The notes below the pieces were generated by a model that was not told the DNA's origin, ran no database searches, and was given only the letters and a program-made list of their open reading frames with translations. Positions 5,790 through 32,252 of a DNA stretch of 47,451 bases are shown here, piece after piece. Where the stretch lies: the NCBI GenBank assembly GCA_049509675.1, contig JBEKZQ010000667.1, forward strand, positions 1 through 47,451. Reading direction: 5' to 3'. This DNA comes from Thermoguttaceae bacterium (lineage in GTDB: Bacteria; Planctomycetota; Planctomycetia; Pirellulales; Thermoguttaceae). Every line of letters starts with the position of its first letter. Within the stretch, counting starts at the first letter, position 1. Both the position numbers and the translations under genes were made by a program.

Positions 5790-7568
5790 ATGCCCACCGC
5801 CACGCGCAAACGAGCCGCCGCGAAAAAACCGGAGACGATCGAGGCCCGCGTGCGCGCCTACATTGCCGGCGTCAGCTCCGGCGAGATCGTGGCCTGCAAG
5901 TGGGTCAAGCTGGCCGTCGCGCGCCACGTCCGCGATCTGAAGCACAGTGCGAAGCGGGGCCTCCACTTCGACGCCGACGCCGCGCGGCTGGCGGTGCAGT
6001 TCGTCGAATGCCTGCCGCACTCGAAGGGCAAATGGGCCGGCAAGCCCTTGCGCCTCGAGGGCTGGCAGATTTTCATCGTGTGGTGCGTCTACGGCTGGAT
6101 GCGCAGCGACGGCCGCCGCCGCTTCAACACGGTGCTAATCGTCGTCGCGCGCAAAAACGGCAAGTCGACGCTCTGCGCCGGCCTGGCCCTGAAGGCCCTG
6201 GTCTGCGACGGAGAGGCCGGCGCCGAGGTCTACTCCGCCGCCACCAAGCGCGACCAGGCCAAGATCGTCTGGTCCGAGGCCCGCAAGATGGTGCTGAAAA
6301 GCCCGTCGCTGAAAAAAATCATCGGCGTGTCGCGCGGGGCGCTGGCCGTCGAATCGACGCAGTCCACCTATCAGCCCCTGGGGCGCGACGCCGACACGCT
6401 CGACGGCCTGAACCCGTCCTGCGCCGTGATCGACGAGGTCCATGCCCACAAGGACCGGGCCGTCTGGGACGTGATCGAGTCGGGCACCGGCGCGCGGGAA
6501 AATCCGCTCTTGATCGGCATCACCACGGCCGGCGACGGTTCGCCCGAGTCGATCTATGCCGAGCTCAAAAAACGCACCGAGGACGTGCTCACCGGCGCGG
6601 TGGAAGACGACACCTGGTTCGGCATGATCTTTACGCTCGACGAGGGCGACTCGTGGCAGGATGAACGTGTTTGGCTCAAGGCCAATCCGAATCTGGGCGT
6701 ATCGGTCAACATCGAGGACCTCCGCCGGCTCTGCCAGAAGGCCAAAGAATCGCCGGCCAGCGTGGCGAATTTCCGCCGCAAGCGCTGCAACGAAGACGTG
6801 GCCACCTCCAGCCCCTGGCTGTCCGTCGAAGAGGGCAGCGCGTGGCAGGCCTGTGCCGGCGGCGATTTTTACGATGGGCACGGCCTGCGGCCCGAGACGA
6901 TCGAGCGCTTCCGCGGCCGGAAATGCTGGGTGGGCGCGGACCTCTCCAGCCTCTCCGACCTGACGGCCATGGCCTTTTGCTTTCCTTGTGAGGACGGCTC
7001 GGCGGATCTTCTCGCCTTCGCCTGGTGTCCGCGGCAAAACGCCGTCGGACGGACCCGCGACAACCGCGTCCCCTACATTACCTGGGCCGACATGGGCCTG
7101 CTGAAGCTGACCGATGGGGACAGCGTAAATTACGACGAGCTCCGCGATACGCTCCGCACGGCCCGCGACGCCTGGGGTTGGGAGATCCAGCGCATCGCCT
7201 TCGACCCCAACAATGCCCGCTATCTCCTCACCAAGCTGGCCGAGGAGGACGGTTTTTCCGCCGAGCAACTGGTCGAGCACGACCAGCGCTGCGGCGCGAT
7301 GAACGAGCCGATCCTGGCCACCGAGAAGCTGATCCTCGACCGCAAGCTCCGCCACGGCGGCCACCGCGCCTTGCGTTGGTGCGTGGCCAACGCGGTGATT
7401 TATACCGATACGGGCGGCCGCCGCCGCTTCAACAAGCGGCGGAGCCGCGAAAAGATCGACCTGGCCGTGGCCGCGGTGATGGCCGTGGGCTGCGCCGCCT
7501 CGGGCGCCGGTGCGGAACCCGCCGGCGCAAGCATCTACGACAACCTGGATCACATCATCATGGTCTAG
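5790..7568 (+). CDS. terL: Terminase large subunit
   Basis: Walker A-like VVARKNGKST and Walker B AVIDEVHAH. 592 aa, positioned between TerS and portal. Confidence 0.9.
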   Translation: MPTATRKRAAAKKPETIEARVRAYIAGVSSGEIVACKWVKLAVARHVRDLKHSAKRGLHFDADAARLAVQFVECLPHSKGKWAGKPLRLEGWQIFIVWCVYGWMRSDGRRRFNTVLIVVARKNGKSTLCAGLALKALVCDGEAGAEVYSAATKRDQAKIVWSEARKMVLKSPSLKKIIGVSRGALAVESTQSTYQPLGRDADTLDGLNPSCAVIDEVHAHKDRAVWDVIESGTGARENPLLIGITTAGDGSPESIYAELKKRTEDVLTGAVEDDTWFGMIFTLDEGDSWQDERVWLKANPNLGVSVNIEDLRRLCQKAKESPASVANFRRKRCNEDVATSSPWLSVEEGSAWQACAGGDFYDGHGLRPETIERFRGRKCWVGADLSSLSDLTAMAFCFPCEDGSADLLAFAWCPRQNAVGRTRDNRVPYITWADMGLLKLTDGDSVNYDELRDTLRTARDAWGWEIQRIAFDPNNARYLLTKLAEEDGFSAEQLVEHDQRCGAMNEPILATEKLILDRKLRHGGHRALRWCVANAVIYTDTGGRRRFNKRRSREKIDLAVAAVMAVGCAASGAGAEPAGASIYDNLDHIIMV

Positions 7569-7659
7569 TGTTCAGTGTTCAGTTTTCAGTGTTCAGTACG
7601 CTGACGCGGAAAACGACGGTCCATTCGCATGCGAACTGAAAACTGAAAACTGAATACTG
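7568..7659. repeat. Inverted tandem-repeat hairpin, TTTTCAG/CTGAAAA family
   Basis: Left arm gtgttcagtgttcagttttcagtgttcag (7568-7596). Right arm ctgaaaactgaaaactgaatactg (7636-7659). Followed by the small hairpin gcgggctttagcccgc. Confidence 0.9.
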
Positions 7660-7694
7660 GCGGGCTTTAGCCCGCAACTCCCGAAAGGGTTCCA

Positions 7695-9977
<2,283 letters not shown>

Positions 9978-11055: not shown

Positions 11056-11319
11056 ATGGGAAAAGGTAGCCGCCGCCGGCCCTGCCTGGTCAGCCGCGAA
11101 CAGTTCGAACGCAACTGGGAACGGGCCTTCGGCAGGAAGGAAAAGCAGCCACGGATGAAACACGGAACGAACACGGAAGGGAATCACGAAAGCACGAAAA
11201 CGCGAAACGCCCCCGCCCCAAAGGGGCCTGACTCGATAGCCCAGGGCAACGCCCTGGGTGCGCAGAGCCATAAAACCTCAGCCCCGCAGGGGCGCAACAA
11301 ACGGAAACCGATGCCATGA
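11056..11319 (+). CDS. Small hypothetical protein; only the first ~30 codons look protein-like, the rest reads through repeat elements
   Basis: MGKGSRRRPCLVSREQFERNWERAFG, followed by translation of the CACGRAW array and hairpins at 11149-11300. Confidence 0.3.
   Translation: MGKGSRRRPCLVSREQFERNWERAFGRKEKQPRMKHGTNTEGNHESTKTRNAPAPKGPDSIAQGNALGAQSHKTSAPQGRNKRKPMP
11216..11300 (+). ncRNA. Conserved three-hairpin leader element, copy 1 (upstream of the protease gene)
   Basis: ccccaaagggg / ctcgatagcccagggcaacgccctggg / gccccgcaggggcgcaacaa. A paralogous ~87-nt copy lies at 15934-16020 with conserved stems and different loops. Confidence 0.4.
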
Positions 11320-12851
11320 CCACCGCCGAACGAGAAATCCGCATCATCCGCAAACCGGCCGAACTCCGCGCCGCCAAGGGCGACGACGGGGGCGACGTTT
11401 TTTCGGGCTACGTCTTCGAGTGGGACGCCCGCAGCGACGACCTGGGCGGCTTCGTCGAAACCATCAAGCGCGGGGCGGCCGCCAAGTGGCTGGCCAAACC
11501 GACGCGGAACCTCTTTGCCATCCTCGACCACAGCAAGGAGGTCCGCAATGTGCTGGGCGACATGGAGACCGGCACGCTGAAGCTCTTTGAGGACGATCGC
11601 GGGCTGGGTTTTGTGATCCACGCCGGCCCGACGACGGCCGCCAAGGATGCCGCGGTGGTCGTGGGCCGCAACCGCGTGGGCATGAGCTTCGCCTTCATCT
11701 GCGGCCGGCAGGACTGGACCACGCTGCCCGACGGCTCCCGCCTGCGGACCATCAGCGAATTCAAGGACCTGGACGACATCTCGATTGTCGTCGATGCCGC
11801 GTACAAGTCCTCCGACGTGACCGTGGCCAAGCGCTCGCTGGAGGAGGCGCTCGCCATCGAGAAGCGGACCGCCGCCGAAGCGGCGACCCAAAAAGTGGAA
11901 ACAGAAAAACGCGCGGCTGCCGACGCGGCCGCCCAAACCAAGAAGCAGAGGGAGATCGAAGACATGGAGAAGCGACCGAGCGTGGATTACCTGAAGCGGC
12001 AATTGGACCTGGCGGATCTGGAGGCCCGCTGCTATGGCAATTACCCCGAGCGCCGCGACGAAGAGCAGCCCAAGCACGGGCCGGACGCCGCCGAGGCCCA
12101 CCGGGCCACGCGGGAGACGCTCCGCGCCAAGGAGAATTCTGGCCTGCCCTCGCGGGCCCTGGAACTGAAGGCGGCCGCCGCGCACCAAAAAGCGGCCGAG
12201 TCGGCCAAGACCGAGGGCAAGACGGCCGCCGCCGATTTCCACACCAAGGCCGCCGCCATGCACGACGCGGCCGCCAGCGACCAGTACGCCGCCAATTTTT
12301 CCGATGCCATGCAGATGCGGGGCCGGGGACTGTCCCAACTTTCGTTCGACGAAAGTGGGACTGTCCCCTTCGGCCTCGAAACTCGAACCAACCAAGGAGA
12401 TGCGATGTCGTTGACCGAACAGATTGAAGCCCGTTTCAACCCCAACCATGACGACAAGGGCCGTTTCGACTCGGCCGAGGGCGCGAGCAAGGCCGCCGAG
12501 AAGGCCACGAAATCGGCCGAGAAGGCCAGCAAGCACGCCGCCGGATCCAAAAGCGCCTCGGCGCACGACCGGGCCGCCGACGCCCACGAGGCGGCGCACG
12601 ACGCGCACAAGGTGGCCGAGGCGCACCACAAGGCCCTGGCCGCCTACCACAAGGGCGCAGGACACGCCGACAAGGCCAAGGAGCACCTGGCCGCCGCCAA
12701 GATGCACGCCGCCAAGGCCGAGGCCCACCAGGCGGCCGAGGAAGGCCGCGCCTTCCCCAGGAACCCCTACGTCGAGCAGGCCGAATACGCCGACCCGGCC
12801 GGCGCCGGCACGGGCACGGCCGCGGCCGGCGAAGCCGCCGCCACGGCCTGA
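11316..12851 (+). CDS. Prohead protease, HK97 family (S78/U35), with a coiled-coil, His/Ala/Lys-rich scaffold-like C-terminal half
   Basis: N-terminal domain AILDHS...GMSFAF (His and Ser of HK97-type proteases). C-terminal half is helical and low-complexity. Position is right for a protease-scaffold gene. Confidence 0.85.
   Translation: MTTAEREIRIIRKPAELRAAKGDDGGDVFSGYVFEWDARSDDLGGFVETIKRGAAAKWLAKPTRNLFAILDHSKEVRNVLGDMETGTLKLFEDDRGLGFVIHAGPTTAAKDAAVVVGRNRVGMSFAFICGRQDWTTLPDGSRLRTISEFKDLDDISIVVDAAYKSSDVTVAKRSLEEALAIEKRTAAEAATQKVETEKRAAADAAAQTKKQREIEDMEKRPSVDYLKRQLDLADLEARCYGNYPERRDEEQPKHGPDAAEAHRATRETLRAKENSGLPSRALELKAAAAHQKAAESAKTEGKTAAADFHTKAAAMHDAAASDQYAANFSDAMQMRGRGLSQLSFDESGTVPFGLETRTNQGDAMSLTEQIEARFNPNHDDKGRFDSAEGASKAAEKATKSAEKASKHAAGSKSASAHDRAADAHEAAHDAHKVAEAHHKALAAYHKGAGHADKAKEHLAAAKMHAAKAEAHQAAEEGRAFPRNPYVEQAEYADPAGAGTGTAAAGEAAATA
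12325..12368. repeat. 44-bp palindromic element (variant A), in frame inside the protease gene
   Basis: ggggactgtcccaactttcgttcgacgaaagtgggactgtcccc, translated GLSQLSFDESGTVP. Related copies at 34407-34450 and 43857-43900. Confidence 0.9.
12405..12851 (+). CDS. Candidate nested in-frame scaffold protein (lambda C/Nu3-like arrangement)
   Basis: Internal ATG at 12405 preceded by AAGGAG (12394-12399), just after the palindromic element. Product MSLTEQIEARFNPNHDDKGRF... is helical and His/Ala/Lys-rich. Confidence 0.4.
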   Translation: MSLTEQIEARFNPNHDDKGRFDSAEGASKAAEKATKSAEKASKHAAGSKSASAHDRAADAHEAAHDAHKVAEAHHKALAAYHKGAGHADKAKEHLAAAKMHAAKAEAHQAAEEGRAFPRNPYVEQAEYADPAGAGTGTAAAGEAAATA

Positions 12852-12861
12852 AGGCCGTGGG

Positions 12862-13047
12862 GCCGCGTAGCGGCCATTGACGGTAGCCGTGGGTTTCAAC
12901 CCACGGTCCAAAAACCGGCCGATTTGTTCCGTCGCGCAGCGACGGCTGAATGACCGACGCCACCCCCGCGCCGAAACGGCGTCGCGCAGCGACGCCTGAT
13001 CCGTGGGTTGAAACCCACGGCTACCATCGGGCCATCGCTACGCGATT
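12862..13047. repeat. Composite REP/MITE-like element (inverted unit A' - small hairpins - unit A)
   Basis: 12862-12906 is the inverted variant of 13001-13047. Internal hairpins ccgtcgcgcagcgacgg and ggcgtcgcgcagcgacgcc. Same architecture at 41273-41462 and 42805-43022. Confidence 0.85.
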
Positions 13048-13091
13048 AACCCCCGCTGAAAACTGAAAACTGAAAACTGAAAACTACTCCG

Positions 13092-14069
13092 ATGTCCGAA
13101 CTTAACGTCCCCGGCCGCGTCCTGGTGCCTCGAAACCCCTTCCCCCACAACACCTACTGGCTCAACGCCGGCATCGTCGAGGCCTGGCAGAAAACCTGGT
13201 GCTTCGCCCGTGTGGGACGCGGCAACTGCATGATCTTCCGCCTGGAAATGGACGCCGCCGGCCAGGTGCACTCGCCCCATCCGCTCTTCGGCCTGTCCGA
13301 TCCGCATCTGAAGGCCGAGGACCCGCGGGCCATTTACGACCCGCTCCGCGATCGGATCGTGCTCTACTACGCCGGCATTCTGGGGCCGGGCCACTGCGCC
13401 ATCTTCCGCGCGGAGATCGACCAGGCCGGCAAAGTGCATGGCCGCGAGCAGCTTCGCTACCTGGACGACGGCCAGGGCGTCCGCGTCGTGCAGCGGGCCT
13501 TCGCCGTCGACGAGCAGAAGAACTGGGCCCCGTTCATCGCCGACGGCCGGGAACTTTGCATCTACCACCATGCGCCCTGGACCATTTTGGAGCGGACGTC
13601 CGAAGGCATGCGCCTGGCGCACAAAGGCCCTTCAATCTCCTGGGATTATGGCGAGATCCGCGGGGGCGCGCCGCCGGTGAAAGTTGGGGACGTCTTTTAT
13701 TCCATTTTTCATTCCGCCCGCTTCGACCGGGATCCCGACACCGGGAAAGAATCGAAGGTCTATTACGCCGGCTGCCTGGCCTTCACCGACGACTTTGGAT
13801 TGGCGGCGATCACCCCCGAGCCGATTTTGGCCGGCAACGTGGCCGAGGGCAACTGGCCCTGGACGGCCCCCGGCATCGGCGTGGCCGTCTCCGCCTGTTT
13901 CCCTTGTGGGGCGATCGTGCGGGGTGAGAATCTCTTGGTGAGCTATGGGTGGCTCGATCAGGAAGTCCGCCTGGCGGAGATCCCGATCGCCGAGCTGCGC
14001 GAGCGGATGGTTGAACCGGAGCCCGTGGCCCTGGGAGCGCGGAGGAGAATCGTAAAGCATGATGCGTGA
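13092..14069 (+). CDS. Beta-propeller glycosidase/glycoside-phosphorylase-like protein (GH130/DUF377-like, tentative)
   Basis: Motifs AEDPRAIYDP, EQKNWAPF, YGEIRGGAPPVKVGDVFYSIFHS, YYAGCLAFT, ENLLVSYGWLDQEVRLAEIPIAEL resemble the blade pattern of GH130/GH43-type propellers. By-eye call only. Confidence 0.45.
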   Translation: MSELNVPGRVLVPRNPFPHNTYWLNAGIVEAWQKTWCFARVGRGNCMIFRLEMDAAGQVHSPHPLFGLSDPHLKAEDPRAIYDPLRDRIVLYYAGILGPGHCAIFRAEIDQAGKVHGREQLRYLDDGQGVRVVQRAFAVDEQKNWAPFIADGRELCIYHHAPWTILERTSEGMRLAHKGPSISWDYGEIRGGAPPVKVGDVFYSIFHSARFDRDPDTGKESKVYYAGCLAFTDDFGLAAITPEPILAGNVAEGNWPWTAPGIGVAVSACFPCGAIVRGENLLVSYGWLDQEVRLAEIPIAELRERMVEPEPVALGARRRIVKHDA

Positions 14070-14115
14070 AGCGTGGAGCGTTTTTCGCCCTACGCCCCAC
14101 GGCCCACGCCCCACG
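14064..14115. repeat. Inverted tandem-repeat hairpin, GTGGGGC/GCCCCAC family
   Basis: Left arm gcgtgaagcgtggagcg. Right arm cgccctacgccccacggcccacgccccacg. Confidence 0.85.
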
Positions 14116-14129
14116 TTTTGGAGATCCCT

Positions 14130-14783
14130 ATGAAATACCTTGAAGAGTTCGATGCGGCTGAATGCGGCGGACATGCCCGCCGTTACGCCGTATCGCTGGA
14201 ATGGATCGAGCCGCTGCTTTTGCCCGGGGCCGTAATCTACCAGACCGGCCGCGGCTTCTGCCCCTTCGACCTGGCCGCCCGGCGACTCTTTCCCATCGAC
14301 CTGCGCAGCACGGGCCAAAGCGACCTGCGTTATCCGCTGCCCCTGGCCGCAGAAATTGCCGACGGCATCTTCTGCATGGAGACCATCGAGCACATCGACG
14401 ACCCGGCCGACTGCGACGGCGAAATGTTCCACGACGCCGGGATCCATAACCTGCTCAGCGAATGCCACCGCATTTTGAAGCCGGGCGGATGGCTCTTCCT
14501 TACCACGCCCAACGCCAATCAGTACGGCTGCGCCTGGCGTCTGGTAAAGGGCGACTCGCCCCGCTGGTGCAACGGCCACATCCGCGAACTCGGCTATTGG
14601 GAACTGTTGCATTTCGTTCGTCGCGCCGGCTTCGGCGTCGAGCGGATCGAAACCCGGGACGTGTGGGAGGACCTCCCATGTCCGACGGAACTCCGGCAGG
14701 CGATGGACCGCCTGGCGCCCGGCGTGCCCCGCGGCCATTGCGTTTTTATGTTGGCGCGAAAGCGGACGTCTCCTAATCCCTAA
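14130..14783 (+). CDS. Class I SAM-dependent methyltransferase
   Basis: ATG at 14130 after the hairpin. CHRILKPGGWLFLTTPN and upstream IFCMETIEHIDD are typical Methyltransf_11/23 motifs. Confidence 0.65.
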   Translation: MKYLEEFDAAECGGHARRYAVSLEWIEPLLLPGAVIYQTGRGFCPFDLAARRLFPIDLRSTGQSDLRYPLPLAAEIADGIFCMETIEHIDDPADCDGEMFHDAGIHNLLSECHRILKPGGWLFLTTPNANQYGCAWRLVKGDSPRWCNGHIRELGYWELLHFVRRAGFGVERIETRDVWEDLPCPTELRQAMDRLAPGVPRGHCVFMLARKRTSPNP

Positions 14784-14813
14784 TTTCCAATCCCTAATCC
14801 CTTCCTTTTTTCC

Positions 14814-15671
14814 ATGCCCGACTATCGACCAAGATCCGACAAGGCCGAATGGCACCTGACCCACCGCTGCGACCTGGCCTGCCCGAACTGCAATCGCGCC
14901 TGCTTCCTGCCGCCGCAAACGCCGGATATGAGCGTGGACGACGGGCGGGAATTCTGCCGGCAGGCGGCGGACCTCGACTACCGCCCCCGCATCATGCTGA
15001 TCGGCGGCGAGCCCACCTTGCACCCGGACTTTCTTGAGTTCGTGAAGCTGGCCTCGGCCTTCGCCGGCTCGGACCGCGTCGAAATCTGGTCCAACGGCTT
15101 TTCAGCGCAAGCGAAGGAGCTGCTCGCGCTGGTCCAGGACCATGGCCTGGCCATCGTCCAGTGGGGCACCGTCAAGCGTGGCAACGCCAGCCATCCGGTC
15201 CGGGACATCTTTATTGCCCCGGCCGACTTCGGCGAGACCCGCGAGCCGTGCGGCACGCATGCCTGCTTCGCCGATCCGGACTGCGGCATCAGCGTGGACT
15301 CGGGCGGCTATACCGTCTGCTGCATGGGCGGGGCGATCGACGGCATTCTGGGCCTTTCCGTGCGGACCCGGCGGCTGGCGGACCTCTGGGACCCGGAGTT
15401 CGCCGCGCGGCAGACCCGGGCGCTGTGCGACCATTGCGGCCAGCACCTGGGCATCCCGCCGCAAAAGCGCGCCGCCTGCCAGCGGATCCACGGCACGCTC
15501 ATGTCGCCCGCGTGGGCGCGTGAGAGCAGGAGGGCAATTGAGCAGGAAAGCAAAAGAACAGGAGAACAGGAGAACAGGAGAAACGCCGATCTTCCCCCAA
15601 AGCCGTGCTTCGCCTGCTCACCTGATCCCTTGCTCACCTGTTCCAGCATGGAGGCCCTGCCTCCATGCTGA
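14814..15671 (+). CDS. Radical SAM enzyme with a Cys-rich (SPASM/twitch-like) C-terminal region
   Basis: CX3CX2C in HRCDLACPNCNRAC, GGEPTLHPDF, then CGTHACFADPDCGISVDSGGYTVCCMGG...CDHCG. The last ~45 codons run through a CAGGAGA-family hairpin (15520-15645). Confidence 0.8.
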   Translation: MPDYRPRSDKAEWHLTHRCDLACPNCNRACFLPPQTPDMSVDDGREFCRQAADLDYRPRIMLIGGEPTLHPDFLEFVKLASAFAGSDRVEIWSNGFSAQAKELLALVQDHGLAIVQWGTVKRGNASHPVRDIFIAPADFGETREPCGTHACFADPDCGISVDSGGYTVCCMGGAIDGILGLSVRTRRLADLWDPEFAARQTRALCDHCGQHLGIPPQKRAACQRIHGTLMSPAWARESRRAIEQESKRTGEQENRRNADLPPKPCFACSPDPLLTCSSMEALPPC

Positions 15672-15877
15672 CGCCCCGCCAAGCCGCCGTATTTGACTGT
15701 TTGCAGGCCCTGGCCGCCGACCTGGGCTATCCGCCCACCTCGCGCGAGATCGCCGCCAGGGCGAAGCTGAGCGACACCAGGGCGCGGCAGCACCTGGCCG
15801 CCCTGGAGGCCCGCGGGGCCATCCAGCGCGACCCGGGCACGGCGCGAGGGATCAGGATCGTGGGGCGGGGAGCGTGA
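15665..15877 (+). CDS. LexA N-terminal DNA-binding domain only (no S24 peptidase/dimerisation domain)
   Basis: MLTPRQAAVFDCL...GYPPTSREIA...HLAALEARGAIQRDPGTARGIRIV parallels E. coli LexA residues 1-70. Start overlaps the radical SAM stop (ATGCTGA). Confidence 0.8.
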   Translation: MLTPRQAAVFDCLQALAADLGYPPTSREIAARAKLSDTRARQHLAALEARGAIQRDPGTARGIRIVGRGA

Positions 15878-15933
15878 AGCGGGGAGCGTGGGGCGGGGGC
15901 GACAGTCCGGAGACGAGAGCCCAGAGCCGACAG

Positions 15934-16020
15934 CCCCATAGGGGCAAAACTCGATAGCCCAGGGCGCCGCCCTGGGTAAGGTGACCCGACGTGGGCGCAA
16001 GCCCCATAGGGGCGCGACAA
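15934..16020 (+). ncRNA. Conserved three-hairpin leader element, copy 2 (upstream of the DNA methyltransferase gene)
   Basis: ccccatagggg / ctcgatagcccagggcgccgccctggg / gccccataggggcgcgacaa. Paralogue of 11216-11300. Confidence 0.4.
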
Positions 16021-16048
16021 GGAACCACGAATCACACGGATAACACGA

Positions 16049-16912
16049 ATGAAAGCTGACTGGCAATACCGCGGCATCCGGCTCTACCGGGGCGATTGTT
16101 TGGAGATTCTACCGCGGCTGCGGGCTGCCAGCGTGGACATGATCTTCACGGACCCGCCCTATGGGCACAAGAACAATGACGATGATCTGATCGCCAGGCG
16201 GGAACTTGCGCTTGGCGGCAAGCGATACCATTGTCAGAACCCCGCCAGGCCGATCCTGAACGACGGCCCCGAGGCGAATGATTTGTTCCACGCGAGTTTG
16301 CCGGAATGGGCACGCCTTTTGCGCTGCTGCTGCTGCTGCTGCTGCTGCGGCGGCGGTCCTGATCCGCAATTCGCGCGCTGGTCGTTGTGGATGGACGAAG
16401 TCCTGCGTTTCAAGCAAATGGTGGTCTGGGACAAGGGACCGATGGGCATGGGCTGGCACTACCGGCGTAGTTACGAGACGGTGCTCGTCGCGCAGAAGGG
16501 CAAGGGAAAGACCGCCTGGTTCGACACCACGCGGCGGATCGAAAACATCATCCGCCCGGCATCCGGCATCCGCAAGATCATTCCCTCGGCGGCCGATCAT
16601 CCTACACCGAAGCCGGTCTCGCTCGCCTCCCATTTCATCCGCCTGCACACTTGCCCGGGTCAGGCAGTGCTGGATCCGTTCATGGGCTCCGGCTCAACCG
16701 CCATCGCCTGCATCCGCGAAAAGCGGCGGTTCATCGGCATCGAGCTCGACAAAAAATACTTCGCCGCGGCGGTGGAGCGGATCGAAGCCGAACTGGGCGC
16801 GAAGCGGATCCGCCGGGCCGTTGCGCGCATCGCCCCACGCCCCACGCCCCTCGCCCCACGCTCGAAACGTCGCCAATTGGCGACGACCGGCCGGGAATTT
16901 CGGGCGAAATAA
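16049..16912 (+). CDS. DNA methyltransferase, N6-adenine/N4-cytosine beta class (DPPY)
   Basis: Motif IV MIFTDPPYG precedes motif I VLDPFMGSGSTAIAC. Contains an in-frame Cys8 tract. Confidence 0.85.
   Translation: MKADWQYRGIRLYRGDCLEILPRLRAASVDMIFTDPPYGHKNNDDDLIARRELALGGKRYHCQNPARPILNDGPEANDLFHASLPEWARLLRCCCCCCCCGGGPDPQFARWSLWMDEVLRFKQMVVWDKGPMGMGWHYRRSYETVLVAQKGKGKTAWFDTTRRIENIIRPASGIRKIIPSAADHPTPKPVSLASHFIRLHTCPGQAVLDPFMGSGSTAIACIREKRRFIGIELDKKYFAAAVERIEAELGAKRIRRAVARIAPRPTPLAPRSKRRQLATTGREFRAK
16325..16348 (+). repeat. (TGC)8 trinucleotide microsatellite encoding Cys8, followed by GGC GGC GGT
   Basis: cgc tgc x8 ggc ggc ggt, in the methyltransferase frame (LLRCCCCCCCCGGG). Confidence 0.95.
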
Positions 16913-16997
16913 TCGTGCGGCGTGAAGCGTGCGGCGTGGACCGATCGCCCCACGGTTCCCGCCCCACGCCCCACGGTTCCCGCCCCACGTCCCACGG
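16838..16997. repeat. Cluster of GTGGGGC/GCCCCAC-family arrays plus the hairpin cgtcgccaattggcgacg
   Basis: C-arm 16838-16868, G-arm 16915-16940, C-arm 16944-16997. Confidence 0.85.
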
Positions 16998-17292
16998 TTT
17001 TCCCCCGCCCCCCAATGGCCCCCCTGCGCAAAAACGCAGCCCCCCGCCGCGCGCAGCCGTCGAAACCGCGCCGTATGATTGCGATAGCCAAGGATACGAA
17101 AAGGCCCTCTCAGGCCGGCGTCGGCCGAGCCGCCCCAAGTGGCGGCGACCTGAGCGGGTGACAGTGGCAACGCCGTCCGCCAAGCCGGGCGCGCCCATTA
17201 GGCAAGATCCTTCCCATGAATTTTGCCGGGTGGTGCGTGCGCGGCCCTTCCGTTGCGCGGCCCAAAACCCGGCGGCAACGGAGCATGAAACG

Positions 17293-18672
17293 ATGGCAGC
17301 CGCAGTCAAGGAACTTCTGGAAAAGCGGGCGCAACTGGTCAGCAATGCCCGCGAGATTCTCGATCGCAATCGCGAGGGCGGCAAACTGTCCGCCGACGAC
17401 CAGGCGCACTACGACCGCATCTTCGCCGAGGTGAACAGCCTCAGCGGCGAGGTCGAGCAGCGCAGTCAGTTCGCCAGCCGGCAGGCGCAGTTGGACGCCG
17501 CCGCGGGCTGGGAGAAGCAGGCCGACAAGCGCGACCTCGACCCCAACCCCGAGACGCCCGAGCAGCGCGCCGCGGCCGAGCGGGCCGGCCTCAAGCTGGC
17601 CGCCAAGACCGACTTCTACGGCATGCTGGAGAAGCGCGCCAAGAGCCTGGCCATCCGCCACGCCTTCGAAAACTACCTCAAGCGGAAGGCGACCGAGGAC
17701 CACTACCGGGCGCAACTGCACGAGCACCTGCCGGTGGAATACCGCGATTTGCTGGCCGGCACGGCCGGCAGCGGCGCGGACCTGATCCCGCCGGTGGAGT
17801 TCATCGACCAGATCCTGATACCCCGCGATCGCCAGGTGCTGATCCGCAAGAAGGCCACGGTCCGCCGGCTCTTGAAATCGACCGACGGCTATCAGCCGAC
17901 CATCGAGACCAACCCGGACGACGCCGACTGGACCACCGAAATCCAGCCCGTCAACCCGGACAACACGGGCGCCAACGCGGCCGGCGGCATGACCACCGGC
18001 AAGCGCGAGCTCAAGCCCAACGTGCTGACCAAGCTGGTCAAGGTCTCCATCAAGGAACTGATGGTCCTGCCGCAGGTCAGCGAACTGATCGCCGATCGTC
18101 TCGGCTACAAGTTCGGCGTCAGCGAGGAAAAGGCTTTCATGGTCGGCACCGGCAACGGCCAGCCCCTGGGCGTCTTCACCCTGGGCACGACCTCGGGCAT
18201 CAAGAGCAGCTCCGACGTGCAGACCTACAACGCGGCCACGGCGCCCACCATGGACGGCCTGATCGCCGCCAAGTACACCCTGCCGCCGCCCTACTGGGCC
18301 AATGCGGAATGGATGTTCCACCCGGTGTTCATCAGCCTGATCGCGCAGATCAAGTCGCTGATCAACACGTTCATCTGGCAGCCCTCCACCCAGGCCGGGC
18401 AGCCGGACATGCTGCTGGGCTTCCCGGTCCGCACCGACGTGTGGGCGCCCTCGACCGTCGCCGCCAATGCCTACGCCGGCATCCTCGGCGACTTCAGCTA
18501 CTACCACATCGCCGACCTGGTCGAGCCGTTCAGCGTGCAGCGCCTCAACGAGCTCTACGCCGGCACCAACGAAGTCGGCTTCCTCGGTCGCGAGTACTGC
18601 GACGGCATGCCCGTGATGTCGGAGGCCTTCGTCCGCGTGCAACTCGGCGCGTCGGGGGCGGCGGGAAGCTAG
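17293..18672 (+). CDS. Major capsid protein, HK97 family, with an N-terminal coiled-coil delta-like region
   Basis: ATG at 17293 (MAAAVKELLEKRAQLVSNAREIL...). 459 aa. Sequence upstream within ORF 16651-18672 is translated repeat arrays. Confidence 0.85.
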   Translation: MAAAVKELLEKRAQLVSNAREILDRNREGGKLSADDQAHYDRIFAEVNSLSGEVEQRSQFASRQAQLDAAAGWEKQADKRDLDPNPETPEQRAAAERAGLKLAAKTDFYGMLEKRAKSLAIRHAFENYLKRKATEDHYRAQLHEHLPVEYRDLLAGTAGSGADLIPPVEFIDQILIPRDRQVLIRKKATVRRLLKSTDGYQPTIETNPDDADWTTEIQPVNPDNTGANAAGGMTTGKRELKPNVLTKLVKVSIKELMVLPQVSELIADRLGYKFGVSEEKAFMVGTGNGQPLGVFTLGTTSGIKSSSDVQTYNAATAPTMDGLIAAKYTLPPPYWANAEWMFHPVFISLIAQIKSLINTFIWQPSTQAGQPDMLLGFPVRTDVWAPSTVAANAYAGILGDFSYYHIADLVEPFSVQRLNELYAGTNEVGFLGREYCDGMPVMSEAFVRVQLGASGAAGS

Positions 18673-18682
18673 CGAAAAAAAA

Positions 18683-18768
18683 GGGATTAGGGATTAGCGA
18701 TTAGGGATTAGAGCCGCAGCGCGGCCGCGATTCCTTCTCCTAATCCCTAATCCCCACTCTCTAATCCC
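18683..18768. terminator. Inverted tandem-repeat hairpin, GGGATTA/TAATCCC family, directly after the capsid gene (possible attenuator/terminator; no U-tract)
   Basis: Left arm gggattagggattagcgattagggattag (18683-18711). Right arm ctcctaatccctaatccccactctctaatccc (18737-18768). Confidence 0.5.
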
Positions 18769-18784
18769 TGTCCGCGAGGAGCCC

Positions 18785-19096
18785 ATGCTCGTCCGCGTCC
18801 GTTTGCTCATGTCCTGCCTGGCCGGTCCCGACGGCATCAAGTTCCGCGGCCATGAAGTGGCCGTCTCCCCCGAGCAGGCCCTATTGCTCGTCGCCAGCCG
18901 GCAATGGGAATACGTCCTCCCGCCGCAAGCGGCGGAGCCCAGAGACGAGAGTCAAGAGTCCAGAGCCGAGAATGCCACCGCTGGCTTGCCCAGCAGTGTT
19001 CCAAATGCCCCGCGTCCCCGGCGTGAATTCCGCGGCCGCCCGCTGAACACTGAAAACCGAAAACCGGCGGCCGCCGCGGCCGCAATTGAAAAATGA
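18785..19096 (+). CDS. Hypothetical protein; the C-terminal half is translated repeat elements
   Basis: N-terminal ~50 aa look protein-like. The rest includes the gccaccgctggcttgcccagcagtg hairpin (ATAGLPSS) and a CTGAAAA fragment. Confidence 0.35.
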   Translation: MLVRVRLLMSCLAGPDGIKFRGHEVAVSPEQALLLVASRQWEYVLPPQAAEPRDESQESRAENATAGLPSSVPNAPRPRREFRGRPLNTENRKPAAAAAAIEK

Positions 19097-19728
19097 CCCT
19101 CGTCGTCGTCAGTAAATCGCCCGACGCCGTGATCAGCCTGGACCAGGTCAAGCGCTGGCTGCGCATCGACAATCCGGACGAGGACGACCGGGTGCAGTTC
19201 CTGCTCTCGGTGGCCGCCGATTACGTCGAGCAGGTCAGCCGCATGGTCTTTTCGGAGACCGTCTTCCAGCTCGTTTTGGACGCCTTCCCGGCGGTCAACT
19301 GGTATCAGTATTACCCGGTGATGGCCCCGTTCCCGCAACTGCTGACCCTGGGGCAAAACTTCTTCCTCCCGAATCAGACCATCAACCAGCCGGTCTACCC
19401 GGTCACGTCGATCGACTCGATCCAGTACGTCGACGCCGACAGCGGCCAGGTCACCACGCTCGACCCGTCGCTCTACACGGTGGACCTGGCCGGCACGCGG
19501 ATCGCCCCGGCGGCGCAGCAGATTTGGCCGGCGGCCAAGAACCAGCTCGACTCGGTCACGATCCAGTTCCACGCCGGCTTCGGCCCGGGCAACGTGCCCA
19601 CGCCGCTGAAGCTGGCGGTCCTCAACCATTGCCTGCTGGCCTATATGAACCCCGGCGGCATCCCCGCCGCCGATTTAGAGAATCTCGATAAGGCAATCAT
19701 CGCCCAGAGACAAAATCTGCTCGTATGA
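19093..19728 (+). CDS. Head-tail connector protein (gp6-like)
   Basis: ISLDQVKRWLRIDNPDEDDRVQFLLSVAADYVEQ is the typical N-terminal signature. Start overlaps the upstream stop. Confidence 0.7.
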   Translation: MTLVVVSKSPDAVISLDQVKRWLRIDNPDEDDRVQFLLSVAADYVEQVSRMVFSETVFQLVLDAFPAVNWYQYYPVMAPFPQLLTLGQNFFLPNQTINQPVYPVTSIDSIQYVDADSGQVTTLDPSLYTVDLAGTRIAPAAQQIWPAAKNQLDSVTIQFHAGFGPGNVPTPLKLAVLNHCLLAYMNPGGIPAADLENLDKAIIAQRQNLLV

Positions 19729-20142: not shown

Positions 20143-20150
20143 GACATAAC

Positions 20151-20223
20151 GGGATTAGGGATTAGGGATTAGTCGCAGGCGAGATTCCCCCCTCTAATCC
20201 CCAATCCCCAATCCCTAATTCCC
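20151..20223. repeat. Inverted tandem-repeat hairpin, GGGATTA/TAATCCC family
   Basis: gggattagggattagggattag / ctctaatccccaatccccaatccctaattccc, ending 6 nt before the ATG at 20230. Confidence 0.9.
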
Positions 20224-22370: not shown

Positions 22371-22455
22371 AATATCAAAGTGGGTTCCCGGATTTGGGGG
22401 CCGCGGGCGCAATCCCAACGCCCCCGGATCCGTTTTACCCATAGAAGCAGTTTGA

Positions 22456-22527
22456 AGTTTTCAGTTTTCAGTGTTCAGCAAGACTGGGCATCGGAAGCTG
22501 AAAACTGAAAACTGAAAACTGAAAACT
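22456..22527. repeat. Inverted tandem-repeat hairpin, TTTTCAG/CTGAAAA family
   Basis: agttttcagttttcagtgttcag / ctgaaaactgaaaactgaaaactgaaaact. The left flank agcagtttgaag is shared with the copy at 36470. Confidence 0.9.
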
Positions 22528-22544
22528 ATCACGAAAGGAACCCC

Positions 22545-28070: not shown

Positions 28071-28640
28071 GTGAATTTCGTGAATTTCGTGGATCCTCCT
28101 CCGATGGCCTTCCCGATTGAAAAGGCAGCGGCGTTCATCCTCGCCTACCCGGCCGGCATGGTCGCGGTCGAATTGATCGACTGGCTGCAAAAGAATCGCG
28201 TGGCGGCCATTGCGCTGGAGAACAACCGCACGAATCGGCACATCGTGGTGGGCTACAATCTGTGTGTCCGCCGCGCGCTGGACTCAGGCTTCGAACATTT
28301 CATCTTCGCCGATAACGACATGCGGCCCTCGCTGGCCGAGGCGGCCCCGTTCCTGGCGGCGGCCGGCGACATCGTGGCCTGCAAATACCCCACGGAATGC
28401 GGCGAGGCGGCCTGGCCGGAGCCCAGCGGCTTTCACACCGGTTTATGGCGCAGCACACGGCGCGTGCTGGAGGCGATCGAGCCGCCCTGGTTCCTGCCCA
28501 GCTTTTCCGAGGACGGCTGCCGCGTGCTGACCTGCGAGTGCGCGCTGTTGCCGCTGAAGGCGCAGCGGGCCGGATTCACGGTCCGACATGCCGGCTGGGC
28601 GGGGCACACGCCGCGGCAGAGCGTGGAGCGTGGGGCGTGA
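28071..28640 (+). CDS. GT-A-like glycosyltransferase (tentative)
   Basis: DxD-type motif in HFIFADNDMRP and size consistent with a small GT-A fold. GTG start at 28071 or ATG at 28104. Confidence 0.35.
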   Translation: MNFVNFVDPPPMAFPIEKAAAFILAYPAGMVAVELIDWLQKNRVAAIALENNRTNRHIVVGYNLCVRRALDSGFEHFIFADNDMRPSLAEAAPFLAAAGDIVACKYPTECGEAAWPEPSGFHTGLWRSTRRVLEAIEPPWFLPSFSEDGCRVLTCECALLPLKAQRAGFTVRHAGWAGHTPRQSVERGA

Positions 28641-28729
28641 AGCGTGGGGCGGAAGGCGTGGGGCGTGGGGCGTGATGCGTGGGGCGGAAGGCGTGGGGCG
28701 TGGAGCGCGATCACCCCACGCCCCACGGT
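28621..28729. terminator. Very long GTGGGGC-family array with a short complementary arm, between convergent genes (possible bidirectional terminator)
   Basis: About 12 heptamer units at 28621-28707, then caccccacgccccacgg (28712-28729). The + gene ends at 28640, the - gene ends at 28730. Confidence 0.5.
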
Positions 28730-28873
28730 TCACGGTCCCCGCACGCCGCAGGCCTTCAGCAGGGCGAAAAGGAGGAACAGTCCGACGATCGCGGCGGCCT
28801 GGGCCCAGCCCCGCCAGGTCGGCCGGCCCTCCTGGTCCTCGTCGTCCGGATTGTCGGGATCCAAGAGGCCCAT
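28730..28873 (-). CDS. Small tail-anchored membrane protein (47 aa), not in the ORF track
   Basis: My translation: MGLLDPDNPDDEDQEGRPTWRGWAQAAAIVGLFLLFALLKACGVRGP; acidic N-terminus then one hydrophobic helix. Confidence 0.4.
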   Translation of the reverse strand: MGLLDPDNPDDEDQEGRPTWRGWAQAAAIVGLFLLFALLKACGVRGP

Positions 28874-29101: not shown

Positions 29102-29884
29102 CTATTCTCCGCCGGCCAGCAGCCCGACGGCCCGCAGGCCCTCGTCGATCGGCCGCTCGTGGTGCGAGCGCCAAAATTCTTCCACCGCCTCGGCCAGGGC
29201 CAGTTTGGCGCCCGGGCTGGCATCTCGGATCCGCGCGGCAAGGGCCTGGGCGTCGATCGACCATTTCTCGCCCAGGCCGTCGAGCCGATCGGCGTCGGCC
29301 ACCTCCGCCCAGAGGCACTGCCAGCCGCTCTCGTCCAGGATCGTGCCGTTCAGGGCGTCGCAGATCCCGCAGGCCTCGCCGCGCGAAAGGTGGAGCGACT
29401 CAATCTCCAGTTGCCGACACAGTTGCCGCCGGCGCTCGGCCACACCCGCGCCGTAGATTGCCGCCGAGACGTCCTCGGCAAAAATCGGATCGCTCAAGAG
29501 CGCGCTCACCAGGGCCTGGTAGCGGGCCGTGATGTCGGCCGTCAGCCGCTCTTGCCGGGCCACGTAGTTTTCGCCTGGCGGGTAGCCGGCGACGTGCTCA
29601 AGCGGATCGTAGTCGCGGAGCACCCGGCCGCAGGCGGCGGCCGTGGCCGCGACCTCCGCGGCGTCGTGGCCGCACTCGCCCTGCCACGAGGTGTGATAGC
29701 CGATCCGCACCACGTATTGCCCGGCCTCGGTGCGATAGATGGCCAGTGTGTGGTAGCGATTCTGCTCGCGGCCCCCCATGTGCTGGCCGTCGACCGCGGC
29801 AATGTTTTCGCCGCGGATTCTCAGTGCCGCCTGCCCGCTGCGGGGCAGGAGGAATTCTTGGATCTCATTTTTCGGGCCTGACAT
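29102..29884 (-). CDS. Hypothetical protein (260 aa)
   Basis: Long ORF with GC-rich third positions. N-terminal half RYHTLAIYRTEAGQYVVRIGYHTSWQGECG, C-terminal half with GEACGICD. No family recognised. Confidence 0.55.
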   Translation of the reverse strand: MSGPKNEIQEFLLPRSGQAALRIRGENIAAVDGQHMGGREQNRYHTLAIYRTEAGQYVVRIGYHTSWQGECGHDAAEVAATAAACGRVLRDYDPLEHVAGYPPGENYVARQERLTADITARYQALVSALLSDPIFAEDVSAAIYGAGVAERRRQLCRQLEIESLHLSRGEACGICDALNGTILDESGWQCLWAEVADADRLDGLGEKWSIDAQALAARIRDASPGAKLALAEAVEEFWRSHHERPIDEGLRAVGLLAGGE

Positions 29885-29922
29885 TTTTAGAGCGTTTTCG
29901 GTTAGGGATTAGGGATTAGGGA

Positions 29923-30267
29923 TCAGGGATTAGGTTTGAGCCGGCGCGCGCCGATCAGGTTCAGCGCGACGGACCGGCCGTCGGGCGTATTGGCTTGATC
30001 GAGTTCCGCCAGGGCGGCGGCCATCTCGGCCACCGTCGCCGGCACCAGGATTACATGGTGGCCGGCCGCCTCCAGGTCGGCCGCCACCGCAGCGATCCGC
30101 GCGGAGTACTCTTCGCGCGGAAGATCGCCGTAGCCGCCGGCCACCCAGGCGGCGTGCTCCGCCGCCGGCACGTCCCAGAGAAATACCAGGTCGGGCCGGC
30201 CGTGTTCGGCCGCCAGGTCCCGGACCAGGCGGCCGACACGCCGGCGATAGCGTTTGTCGGCGGCCAT
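29923..30267 (-). CDS. Hypothetical protein (114 aa)
   Basis: ATG at 30267 overlaps the upstream stop (TGATG). MAADKRYRRRVGRLVRDLAAEHG... Confidence 0.5.
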   Translation of the reverse strand: MAADKRYRRRVGRLVRDLAAEHGRPDLVFLWDVPAAEHAAWVAGGYGDLPREEYSARIAAVAADLEAAGHHVILVPATVAEMAAALAELDQANTPDGRSVALNLIGARRLKPNP

Positions 30268-30596
30268 CAGTCGCGCAGACTCCTGCGGCGCGGGCGGGCC
30301 GCCGGGACGTACTCGCGCTGCACCACGGGCTGCCACCAGCCGGCCGGCACTTCAATCGGGCCGTGCTCCTCGTGGGTGATCGGGGTGGGCCGCTCGACGA
30401 ACAGCACGCGGCCGCCGCTGGCCGGCTGGTATACCCGCGCCGGCAGCACGTGGGCATGTCCGGTCCGCTCGCCCTCCACCCGCAGGCCGGCTAGCGGAGT
30501 GCCCGCCTCGTCCACGACTCGCGTTTTTTTCGCCGGCTCGGGCACGCGGACCAGCAGGACGTCGCCCTGGCGGATCTGATTGATTTTCTTCGCCAC
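30267..30596 (-). CDS. Conserved phage protein of unknown function
   Basis: Motifs QGDVLLVRV ... GERTGHAHVL ... THEEHGPIEVPAG ... QREY recall a small family I have seen in phage genomes. Function unknown. Confidence 0.55.
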   Translation of the reverse strand: MAKKINQIRQGDVLLVRVPEPAKKTRVVDEAGTPLAGLRVEGERTGHAHVLPARVYQPASGGRVLFVERPTPITHEEHGPIEVPAGWWQPVVQREYVPAARPRRRSLRD

Positions 30597-30721
30597 GATT
30601 TTTCTCCTCGTCGTCTGGCCGGCTCACCGAGCGCCGGCCCCGCTCCCTCGCGATCGATCGTCGCGGGTGTCTCCGCCGCCCCCCAAGGGGCGGCGGGTGG
30701 ACCCGAGGCGAAGCGCCGCTA

Positions 30722-31882
30722 TCACGCGGTCACGTCGGGCCGGTACTCGCGGCCCTCCAGGCCAAACGTCCAGGCCACGGCGGCCGCCACGCGGGCCGAA
30801 TCGCTCGCGAACGTGCCGTAAAATTTCGTTTCGGAATTTCCGAATTTCGGCGGCACGCGGAGGCAGTGCGCCTCGCCGCTGGTGGAGTCGCGGACGATCA
30901 GGTAGCAGCGGTAGCTGCTCCCGCCGCGGCTGCCATAGGAGCGATCGCCGGAGCCCCAGTTGCGCGAGCCGAAACTGCAAAAATCCCGCATCGTGACCAG
31001 CACGGCCCGCCAGCCGGCGCCCACCTGGACGCTGGCGACCTCGGAGCCCTCGAGCTTGTGGTGGCGCGATTTCTTGCCCTGGAAATCGTAGTGATTGTCC
31101 AGGGCGGCCAGGTCCGCGCGGCACTGCTCGCCGATCCGGCCGACCGCATTGACCAGGCAGCGGACCAGGCCGTCGCTCACCGGGCTGGTCGAGGAGCCCA
31201 GCCCGAACTCGGCCAGGCGGTGCGCGGCGACCAGTTTCCGGGTCGCGGCCGCGCCCAGCTTGCCGGCCGCGATGCGGTCGCGAAAACGCTTCGCGGCGGC
31301 TGCCGCTGCCGCGCGCCGGCGGCCGGCCAACTGGCTGGCGATCCGGCCCGGCTTGCCCCGGCGGGCACTCTCGGCGACGCCGCGGGCTGAGCGGCGGACC
31401 TGCCGCTCGCGGAGGATCGCCAGGGCCTCTATCACCACGGCCCGCGTGGCGATCGGCGACTCGATATATTTCTTCGCCTGGCCCAGGGCGGCCCACAGGT
31501 CGCGCCGGCTCGGCTCGTGGGCGAGCAGGCCGGCCACCGTGCAGCGCTCGCGGGCGGCGGCCTGCATCTCGGCCAGCCGGGCGGCGTGCTGCTGGCGCGC
31601 CAGCCGGTCCGCGAGATCCTGATTTGCCAGGCGGCCCTCGCACTCGGCCCGCCGCTCCTGAGCCAGCAGATAGTCGGCCTGCCGGGCGGCCTCCTGATCC
31701 TCCCAGGCCAGCCGCCGGGCCGCATCCCGCGCCTCGGCGGAGTCGGCGAGGCTGGCCTCCTGGCTGTCGCTTAGGCTGCCCGGCCAGGCGTGCGCCGGCT
31801 GGTGCTCGCGCGCGGCCTGGATCAGTCGCTCGATCTGGGTGGAGGTGGCAGAGTCGCCAGAGATAGCAGTAGCAGTAGTCAT
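30722..31882 (-). CDS. Hypothetical protein (386 aa): coiled-coil N-terminal half, globular C-terminal domain
   Basis: ATG at 31882 (MTTATAISGD...). C-terminus SYRCYLIVRDSTSGEAHCLRVPPKFGNSETKFYG...AWTFGL. No family recognised. Confidence 0.55.
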   Translation of the reverse strand: MTTATAISGDSATSTQIERLIQAAREHQPAHAWPGSLSDSQEASLADSAEARDAARRLAWEDQEAARQADYLLAQERRAECEGRLANQDLADRLARQQHAARLAEMQAAARERCTVAGLLAHEPSRRDLWAALGQAKKYIESPIATRAVVIEALAILRERQVRRSARGVAESARRGKPGRIASQLAGRRRAAAAAAAKRFRDRIAAGKLGAAATRKLVAAHRLAEFGLGSSTSPVSDGLVRCLVNAVGRIGEQCRADLAALDNHYDFQGKKSRHHKLEGSEVASVQVGAGWRAVLVTMRDFCSFGSRNWGSGDRSYGSRGGSSYRCYLIVRDSTSGEAHCLRVPPKFGNSETKFYGTFASDSARVAAAVAWTFGLEGREYRPDVTA

Positions 31883-31977
31883 ACATCGATCCCTTATCTG
31901 GCCTCGTGGCTGGCCCGAGGTTCGGCCCCCGCCTGGTATACGCCGGCGGGCCGCGTGTGTGTCTGGCACTGATATAT

Positions 31978-32005
31978 ATTGTATCGGCTACGCTCTTTTT
32001 GTCCA
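31978..32005 (-). promoter_or_regulatory. Candidate sigma70-type promoter for the minus-strand operon
   Basis: On the minus strand: TGGACA - 16 nt - TACAAT, in the AT-rich gap between xis and the 386-aa gene. Confidence 0.4.
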
Positions 32006-32045
32006 GCACAAAATCAAAAGTCGTAACCCTATATCTATCTAGCGG

Positions 32046-32246: not shown

Positions 32247-32252
32247 GCCCTA

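Follow-up and report, generated by a model that had tools for sequence, protein, structure and literature searches.

A stand-alone LexA DNA-binding domain in the head module of a peat phage and a candidate operator before the capsid gene

The locus

We analyzed a small gene at positions 15665-15877 (forward strand) of contig JBEKZQ010000667.1, which encodes a 70-residue LexA-type DNA-binding domain. The whole stretch, 47,451 nucleotides (nt) long and referred to here as the window, is a phage genome, complete and circular, with a GC content of 66%, in which bases 1-122 are exactly repeated at 47330-47451. The sequencing runs containing the phage came from peat metagenomes. By megablast no near relative was detected among GenBank phages, scans of 185,579 reference genomes with the capsid protein and the LexA domain gave no close relative, and no tRNA genes were found in the window. 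The LexA-domain gene is part of the head module, where the following open reading frames (ORFs) are of importance:

11316-12851, + strand: S78 prohead protease with a scaffold-like tail (PF04586, E = 3.9e-25), the upstream edge of the conserved slot
14814-15671, + strand: radical S-adenosylmethionine (SAM) ORF, 285 amino acids (aa) (PF04055, E = 6.7e-9), overlapping the start of the LexA-domain gene in ATGCTGA
15665-15877, + strand: 70-aa stand-alone LexA-type winged-helix protein, a truncated LexA homologue resembling gp6 (PF01726, fold, identity to gp6, recognition helix of the clade)
16049-16912, + strand: N6/N4 DNA methyltransferase (PF01555, E = 1.4e-28), between the LexA-domain gene and the control region of the capsid gene
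17293-18672, + strand: gene of the HK97-type major capsid protein (PF05065 on the identical contig L003), the presumed regulated target

Apart from the radical SAM and DNA methyltransferase genes, the slot between protease and capsid gene holds a GH130-like gene and a SAM methyltransferase gene. A perfect (TGC)8 run at 16323-16348 gives the N6/N4 DNA methyltransferase an internal stretch of eight cysteines.

The 70-aa protein is a LexA N-terminal domain without the S24 domain

The ORF runs from ATG to TGA and its product is MLTPRQAAVFDCLQALAADLGYPPTSREIAARAKLSDTRARQHLAALEARGAIQRDPGTARGIRIVGRGA. It matched the Pfam family PF01726 (LexA_DNA_bind) with an E-value of 1.9e-16 and 60 bits, at a gathering threshold of 23.7 bits, and the match covered profile positions 4-65 of 65. 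The NCBIfam model of complete LexA, TIGR00498, was matched at positions 4-70 of 203 only, with 53.8 bits at a cut-off of 110.95 bits. The protein aligned with residues 4-69 of Escherichia coli (E. coli) LexA at ~40% identity and therefore ends where the hinge begins, as the first-pass annotation had described. An AlphaFold model (mean predicted local distance difference test score, pLDDT, 93) contained helices at residues 4-20, 26-33 and 37-49 followed by a beta wing, which is the three-helix winged-helix fold of the LexA N-terminal domain. The best matches of this model in the Protein Data Bank (PDB) were the LexA N-terminal domains 3JSO, 3JSP and 1LEA (template modelling (TM) scores 0.87-0.90, root-mean-square deviation 1.0-2.1 A), of which 3JSO and 3JSP (TM scores 0.88-0.90) are LexA DNA complexes.

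The S24 peptidase and dimerization domain with its Ala-Gly cleavage site, which belongs to the TIGR00498 architecture, is missing from the protein. Between the stop codon and the start of the DNA methyltransferase gene lie 171 nt with stops in all three frames, and tblastn searches of the whole window with eight S24 C-terminal domains did not reveal any significant similarity (best E = 0.045), so that a downstream S24 remnant was not found. The DNA at 15400-16060 was identical in four independent metagenome contigs, and a frameshift or an assembly error is therefore excluded. The GC content by codon position in the LexA-domain ORF (0.72/0.61/0.89) resembled that of other genes of the genome. 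This confirms that the protein consists of a LexA DNA-binding domain alone and lacks the S24 domain for autocleavage and dimerization, as had been proposed from the sequence of the locus.

A clade of short phage proteins with its own recognition helix

An exhaustive HMMER search with a limit of E ≤ 0.001 retrieved 2,464 cluster representatives. Of the top 150, 64 were not longer than 110 aa and many others were tandem duplications of the LexA domain. Relatives were encoded at 223 viral loci in IMG/VR, and among the best 80 of them 60 ended within 15 residues of the domain. Stand-alone LexA domains are thus common in phages. Two LexA-type domains in tandem on one chain were seen in many of the closest homologues, e.g. 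P0003, P0005 and P0006 (222-229 aa); such an arrangement would be a covalent "dimer" answering the loss of the S24 dimerization domain.

A profile search placed the 70-aa protein in a distinct clade, whose roughly 17 members are short (69-131 aa), lack PF00717 and scored at least 91 bits, whereas full-length LexA proteins reached at most 72 bits in the same search. The recognition helix of this clade reads S-x-[T/S]-R-[V/I/A]-R-Q-H-L with invariant R, R, Q and H (profile columns R38, R40, Q41 and H42, corresponding to R39, R41, Q42 and H43 of the 70-aa protein). In 94 full-length LexA proteins, a mostly gammaproteobacterial set retrieved in the same profile search, the helix was S-A-N-A-A-E-E-H-L, with A, E, E and H in the columns where the clade has R, R, Q and H. 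R-x-R-Q was also absent from the other full-length LexA proteins among the best hits of the representative search. The 70-aa protein itself carries S-D-T-R-A-R-Q-H-L in place of the canonical LexA helix. The positions of helix 3 that read bases in the E. coli LexA-DNA complex are all replaced in the clade (T/S, R, R and Q for N, A, E and E), and as this replacement is consistent, the clade probably recognizes a target of its own. The LexA-domain proteins were 52-60% identical between phages whose capsid and protease proteins share only 31-34%, and they are hence under purifying selection.

The LexA-domain gene occupies a conserved position before the capsid gene

In ten phages (the window phage and those of loci L008, L154, L155, L156, L158, L175, L176, L177 and L226) the LexA-domain gene follows the protease gene, or an enzyme island, and precedes the capsid gene. 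The following gene orders were found in the relatives:

L156, L008, L175: portal, protease, LexA-domain gene, capsid
L176: protease, 73-aa ORF, LexA-domain gene, cut ORF
L155, L177: methyltransferase, radical SAM, LexA-domain gene, capsid
L158: protease, GH130, methyltransferase, three further ORFs, LexA-domain gene, capsid
L154: GH130, methyltransferase, one ORF, LexA-domain gene, capsid

What stays the same in these contexts is the LexA-domain gene, and the enzymes around it vary. The DNA methyltransferase gene of the window is absent at that place in L155, L158, L177, L156 and L175, where the capsid gene follows the LexA-domain gene directly. In L011 and L016, more distant LexA-domain genes with other recognition helices are also located just before the capsid gene. 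Among capsid relatives in IMG/VR a LexA-domain gene was present in only 2 of 73, and it is hence not universal in this capsid lineage. The gene had initially been described as made together with late or cargo genes. Expression with late head genes agrees with its position, but the gene itself is not cargo, because it is a conserved resident of the protease-capsid slot while the neighboring enzymes vary.

The variable enzyme island between protease and LexA-domain gene spans 13092-15671 in the window, where it consists of GH130-like, Methyltransf_23 and radical SAM genes, and has counterparts in L154, L155, L157, L158 and L177. An ORF with faint similarity to sulfotransferases, or an Antibiotic_NAT acetyltransferase, is also present in the islands of relatives. 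The recurrence of the GH130 and methyltransferase pair beside the capsid gene suggests a modification of the virion or of glycans.

A candidate operator upstream of the capsid gene

When the syntenic intergenic regions from the LexA-domain gene to the capsid gene were read, a palindrome with an A-rich center was found. In the window it is part of the following arrangement:

17024-17039, + strand: candidate operator CTGCGCAAAAACGCAG, a 16 bp (base pair) palindrome C-TGCGC-AAAA-GCGCA-G with the SOS-box geometry CTG-N10-CAG (co-occurrence, shared 15-mer)
17074-17079, + strand: -10-like hexamer TATGAT, 34 nt after the palindrome
17095-17292, + strand: leader of ~190 nt preceding the capsid ATG, conserved and probably structured (four-phage alignment, RNAalifold)

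The palindrome occurs once in the window genome. In the window the inserted DNA methyltransferase gene parts it from the LexA-domain gene, and it has stayed with the capsid gene. The candidate sites of the relatives are:

L177, 2539-2554: CTGCGCAAAAGCGCAG
L176, 4812-4827: GTGCGCAAAAGCGCAG
L226, 2781-2796: GAGCGCAAAAGCGCAC
L156, 6405-6420: CTGCGCAAAAAAACAG
L158, 6418-6433: CTGCGAAAAAACACAG
L154, 5297-5312: CTGCACAAAAGTGTAG
L155, 6287-6301: CTGCGCAAGACGCAG (15 nt)
L008, 6199-6214: CTGCCACAAAAGACAG

In a comparison of 173 loci the strict pattern CCCTGCGMAARA was confined to the sites of these phages. The window and L156, whose capsid proteins are 33% identical, have the 15-mer CCCCCTGCGCAAAAA exactly in common, a length reached in none of 200 shuffles. 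The motif had already been defined when L177, L176, L226 and L154 were inspected, and the palindrome was present in all four. Counted as matches to the consensus TGCGCAAAAGCGCA with at most three mismatches within 500 nt upstream of the capsid gene, it was detected in 7 of 10 phages with the LexA-domain gene versus 2 of 71 capsid relatives without it.

A -10-like hexamer (TAGACT, TAGTAT, TACACT, TACCCT, TAAACT, GATATT or CAGACT) starts 22-25 nt past the palindrome in eight of nine phages, and this spacing places the center of the palindrome near position -44.5. In the AT-richer phages a -35-like TTGATG or TTGCAA follows 1-2 nt past the palindrome, and in L158 TTCACA follows 3 nt past it.

An enumeration of palindromes with 5- or 6-mer half-sites and spacers of 0-10 in eight loci of the clade gave nothing above shuffles. 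The genome was also scanned for LexA-box-like palindromes, and among eight phylum-specific consensus boxes and the gp6 site none exceeded chance.

The leader before the capsid gene has counterparts in L155 (6345-6552), L158 (6470-6676) and L154 (5355-5572). RNAalifold predicted 57 pairs for the four sequences, ten of them with compensatory changes, and no match of the leader to Rfam was obtained. A second, unrelated conserved leader is located at the same place in L156, L008, L175, L176 and L226, and L156 and L008 share an exact 26-mer in it.

Start-codon overlap, hairpins and repeats around the gene

The start of the LexA-domain gene overlaps or abuts the upstream stop codon in six phages (the window phage, L008, L154, L156, L157 and L158). 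The overlap with the radical SAM stop noticed in the first-pass annotation was found at 15665-15671 (ATGCTGA), and translation of the LexA-domain ORF would be coupled to that of the upstream ORF. Four repeat elements surround the gene:

15516-15645, + strand: octamer-array hairpin, GAGCAGGA/GAACAGGA repeats against CCTGCTCA/CCTGTTCC (repeat family D6, Tandem Repeats Finder (TRF) 15555-15582, fold)
15645-15669, + strand: perfect 25-nt palindrome AGCATGGAGGC-CCT-GCCTCCATGCT (read from the sequence)
15850-15905, + strand: heptamer array of the GCGTGGG family over the last codons and the stop of the LexA-domain ORF (repeat family D1, TRF 15865-15898)
16914-16999, + strand: heptamer-array hairpin (CGTGCGG... 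/ CGCCCCA...) followed by TTTT, terminator-like (TRF, repeat families D11 and D12, sequence)

The 25-nt palindrome is unique in the window (none expected by chance). As an RNA hairpin it would pair the GGAGG Shine-Dalgarno sequence with the sequence up to and including the ATG. A 12 bp stem was present at this place in both the minimum-energy and the centroid fold, with z = -4.05 for 15500-15700. This start-codon hairpin is specific to the window phage and was not seen in L155 and L158. The octamer-array hairpin is intergenic in relatives, and the radical SAM genes of L155 and L177 stop short of the corresponding element. The radical SAM ORF of the window extends ~30-45 codons beyond these versions, through the octamer-array hairpin, to the ATGCTGA. 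The hairpin at 16914-16999 with its TTTT looks like an element that would end the upstream transcription unit.

Three other sequences were considered as operators and rejected. The start-codon palindrome is found in the window phage only and makes better sense as an RNA hairpin; two copies of GCCCCATAGGGGC follow the LexA-domain gene, which is not above chance; and the heptamer arrays belong to four unrelated families in one genome, while relatives with the same recognition helix have different heptamers.

Genome-wide, some 43 arrays of tandemly repeated 7- or 8-nt units were counted, 35 of them intergenic and most of them in inverted pairs (e.g. 18681-18769, 20149-20223, 1855-1930, 7563-7660, 22449-22529 and 28618-28742). 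Nearly every intergenic region can thus form a long hairpin with heptamer-repeat arms. The four array families are AGGGATT, CTGAAAA/CTGAACA, GCGTGGG and GAACAGGN. The same architecture with other heptamers was seen in relatives (GTCTTGG and GTCCCAT in L155, CTCCTAA in L177). A role of these arrays as terminators or RNA-stability elements is possible.

Comparison with known systems

The best characterized counterpart is gp6 of GIL01/Bam35, a 66-aa protein described as a truncated homologue of LexA (Fornelos et al., 2018, PMC6182141). It binds its own palindrome GaCACAnnTGTGaC, which adjoins the -35 element of the late promoter P3 and is centered at -43.5, and activates P3, the promoter of the capsid and lysis genes of GIL01 (PMC6182141). 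The 70-aa protein aligned with gp6 end to end and without gaps (BLASTP E = 7e-15, 32% identity), and gp6 itself matched PF01726 (E = 7.9e-14). Both are thus phage-encoded single LexA_DNA_bind domains of similar length (70 versus 66 aa) without S24. The candidate site before the capsid gene would be centered near -44.5 in eight of nine phages, versus -43.5 for the palindrome of gp6. In contrast to gp6, which is encoded by a Bacillus tectivirus, the protein described here belongs to a tailed phage with an HK97-type capsid. The gp6 gene lies in an early operon under the control of host LexA and gp7, whereas the gene of the window is part of the head module and coupled to late genes; no LexA boxes were found in the genome scan, and the GIL01 arrangement of an early operon controlled by host LexA was not seen. 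The recognition helices also differ (S-D-T-R-A-R-Q-H-L here, S-H-K-T-A-H-R-Y-L in gp6), as do the sites (CTGCGC-AAAA-GCGCAG here, GaCACAnnTGTGaC in gp6), and no LexA boxes lie beside the site of the window.

With cellular LexA (TIGR00498; 3JSO, 1JHH) the protein shares the N-terminal winged-helix fold and the identity over residues 4-69, and the candidate site has the 16 bp CTG-N10-CAG geometry of the E. coli LexA box. It differs from cellular LexA by the lack of the hinge, the Ala-Gly site, the S24 Ser-Lys domain and the dimer interface, and by the replaced base-reading residues of helix 3. The same single-domain architecture is found in PHROG 3502 and 362, in the "LexA DNA-binding domain protein" (82 aa) of Bacillus phage 11143, in a 69-aa ORF of F116-like Pseudomonas phages and in mEp390. 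Those stand-alone proteins are 39-44% identical and encoded in early, replication or lysogeny regions, whereas the present clade is set apart by its own helix signature and its fixed position before the capsid gene. Truncated LexA homologues of the gp6 type are hence already known from phages; the position in the head module, the recognition helix and the candidate operator are new.

Proposed mechanism and alternative explanations

We modestly favor the explanation that the 70-aa protein is a phage transcription factor of the gp6 type that acts on the single C-TGCGC-AAAA-GCGCA-G rather than on SOS boxes of the host, and that it most likely activates the capsid unit. The elements would then be ordered as a portal-protease unit with the LexA-domain gene in last position, the terminator-like hairpin, the palindrome, a weak promoter, the ~190-nt leader and the capsid gene. 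As the last product of the portal-protease unit, translated in coupling with the ORF before it, the LexA-domain protein would build up with the early head proteins before binding to the palindrome, presumably as two copies, even though it has no dimerization domain. Once bound, it would most likely switch on transcription of the capsid unit, repression being the less likely sign of regulation. In this way the synthesis of capsid protein would follow the expression of the portal, protease and scaffold genes and depend on it.

Several observations weigh against this proposal. Two members of the clade are located elsewhere, as L153 carries the gene before TerS and L157 has an acetyltransferase gene after it; L174 is another exception to the protease-capsid slot. 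The consensus of the palindrome was partly built from the same phages in which it was counted, and the loose core CTGC-N7/8-RCAG is frequent by chance (0.24 per kb). The palindrome is degenerate in L175, 1 nt shorter in L155 and divergent in L008. In the window the spacing to the -10-like TATGAT is 34 nt and not 24, i.e. one helical turn more. A simple sigma-70 scan did not find a promoter in 12800-19200, and a search for RNA runs holding the locus found none. Finally, a monomeric 70-aa domain may bind DNA weakly.

According to the first-pass annotation, the protein could occupy LexA boxes of the host or the phage as an uncleavable or competitive LexA and thereby uncouple SOS genes from DNA damage. 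It is indeed a true homologue of the LexA N-terminal domain without S24, and the co-conserved site has the geometry of an SOS box. However, the base-contacting helix positions are all replaced and invariant within the clade, no canonical SOS-box type is more frequent in the genome than by chance, and the characterized homologue gp6 does not bind LexA boxes. Moreover, the palindrome before the capsid gene is tied to the LexA-domain gene, with only 2 of 71 capsid relatives lacking the gene having it, whereas a host LexA box would be expected to be general. An interference with the SOS response is thus improbable. Somewhat better placed, but still unlikely, is a moron of the repressor or immunity type, which would be expressed from the prophage or late and repress its own capsid unit or the corresponding promoter of related incoming phages, with superinfection exclusion or silent late genes as the outcome. 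LexA-type proteins usually repress, PHROG 362 members carry the annotation of transcriptional repressors, the gene is flanked by hairpin elements, and an integrase-like and a ParB-like gene indicate that the phage may be temperate. Against repression stands the location of the palindrome, which precedes the -35 position and does not cover the -10 element or the start site, and the overlapping or abutting start codons in six phages argue for expression from the head operon and not from a promoter of its own.

The conserved position in the head-morphogenesis module and the co-translation with head genes would also fit a head-associated DNA-binding protein without a regulatory role, e.g. one linked to packaging or packaged into the virion. 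A recognition helix of the sequence-specific type that is invariant in the clade is not expected from such a protein, nor is a single-copy palindrome that is conserved together with the gene and spaced from a -10-like element as in a promoter, and with the gene in only 2 of the 73 IMG/VR phages of this capsid type the protein is not a core structural part; we therefore assign a low probability to this role. Regulation of the adjacent enzyme island (the GH130-like, SAM methyltransferase and radical SAM genes) appears very improbable. In the window, L155, L158, L177 and L154 the LexA-domain gene is located directly downstream of the island genes and translationally coupled to them, but it is found at the same place in the island-free L008, L156 and L175, and the conserved site lies downstream of the LexA-domain gene and not upstream of the island.

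If the protein acts as a gp6-type factor on the capsid unit, the clade would be a second case with a testable prediction, consisting of one protein, one 16 bp site, one promoter and several natural variants in which the changes are matched. Of the unannotated "repressor-like" small proteins of phages, stand-alone LexA domains are one of the commonest kinds, and a role is known for gp6 only. The clade could show the re-use of an SOS repressor domain as a dedicated regulator of virion genes. More tentatively, the LexA-derived protein, the SOS-box-shaped palindrome and the structured leader might form a self-contained switch of the capsid gene that works as a feed-forward timer, the factor being a product of the portal-protease unit and in turn activating the capsid unit. 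The switch would be inherited as a unit among uncultivated phages of peat and soil, in a lineage where capsid divergence has left 33% identity. A LexA domain without any dimerization domain would then be able to work on an operator with two half-sites. In any case an annotation as "LexA repressor", or an interference with the SOS response, should not be read off the domain name alone.

Other features of the phage genome

Nearly all non-structural ORFs at 29102-38018 and 43138-46094 are without a Pfam match. The only recognizable non-structural genes are a ParB-like gene (38995-41055) and a weak match to tyrosine integrases, so that the replication and lysogeny part is essentially uncharacterized. 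The weak tyrosine-integrase-like gene (41568-42797) is flanked by two copies of the repeat family GGCCGCGTAGCGGCC...CCGTGGGTTTCAACCCACGG, which is present in four copies (12851-12906, 38172-38227, 41262-41317 and 42794-42849) and has inverted partners at 12993-13028 and 42822-42857.

A palindromic element of 47-54 nt, GGGGACTGTCCCA...CGAAAGTGGGACTGTCCCC, occurs in three copies (12322-12377, 34399-34452 and 43858-43904). All three are located within ORFs, one of them being the scaffold-like tail of the protease gene. Further, a segment of ~250 nt of the portal gene is found as an inverted copy near the other end of the genome map, where 8800-8933 corresponds to 46404-46537 and 9000-9044 to 46329-46373 (98% and 93% complementary, respectively). 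This copy could be an antisense element or a remnant of recombination.

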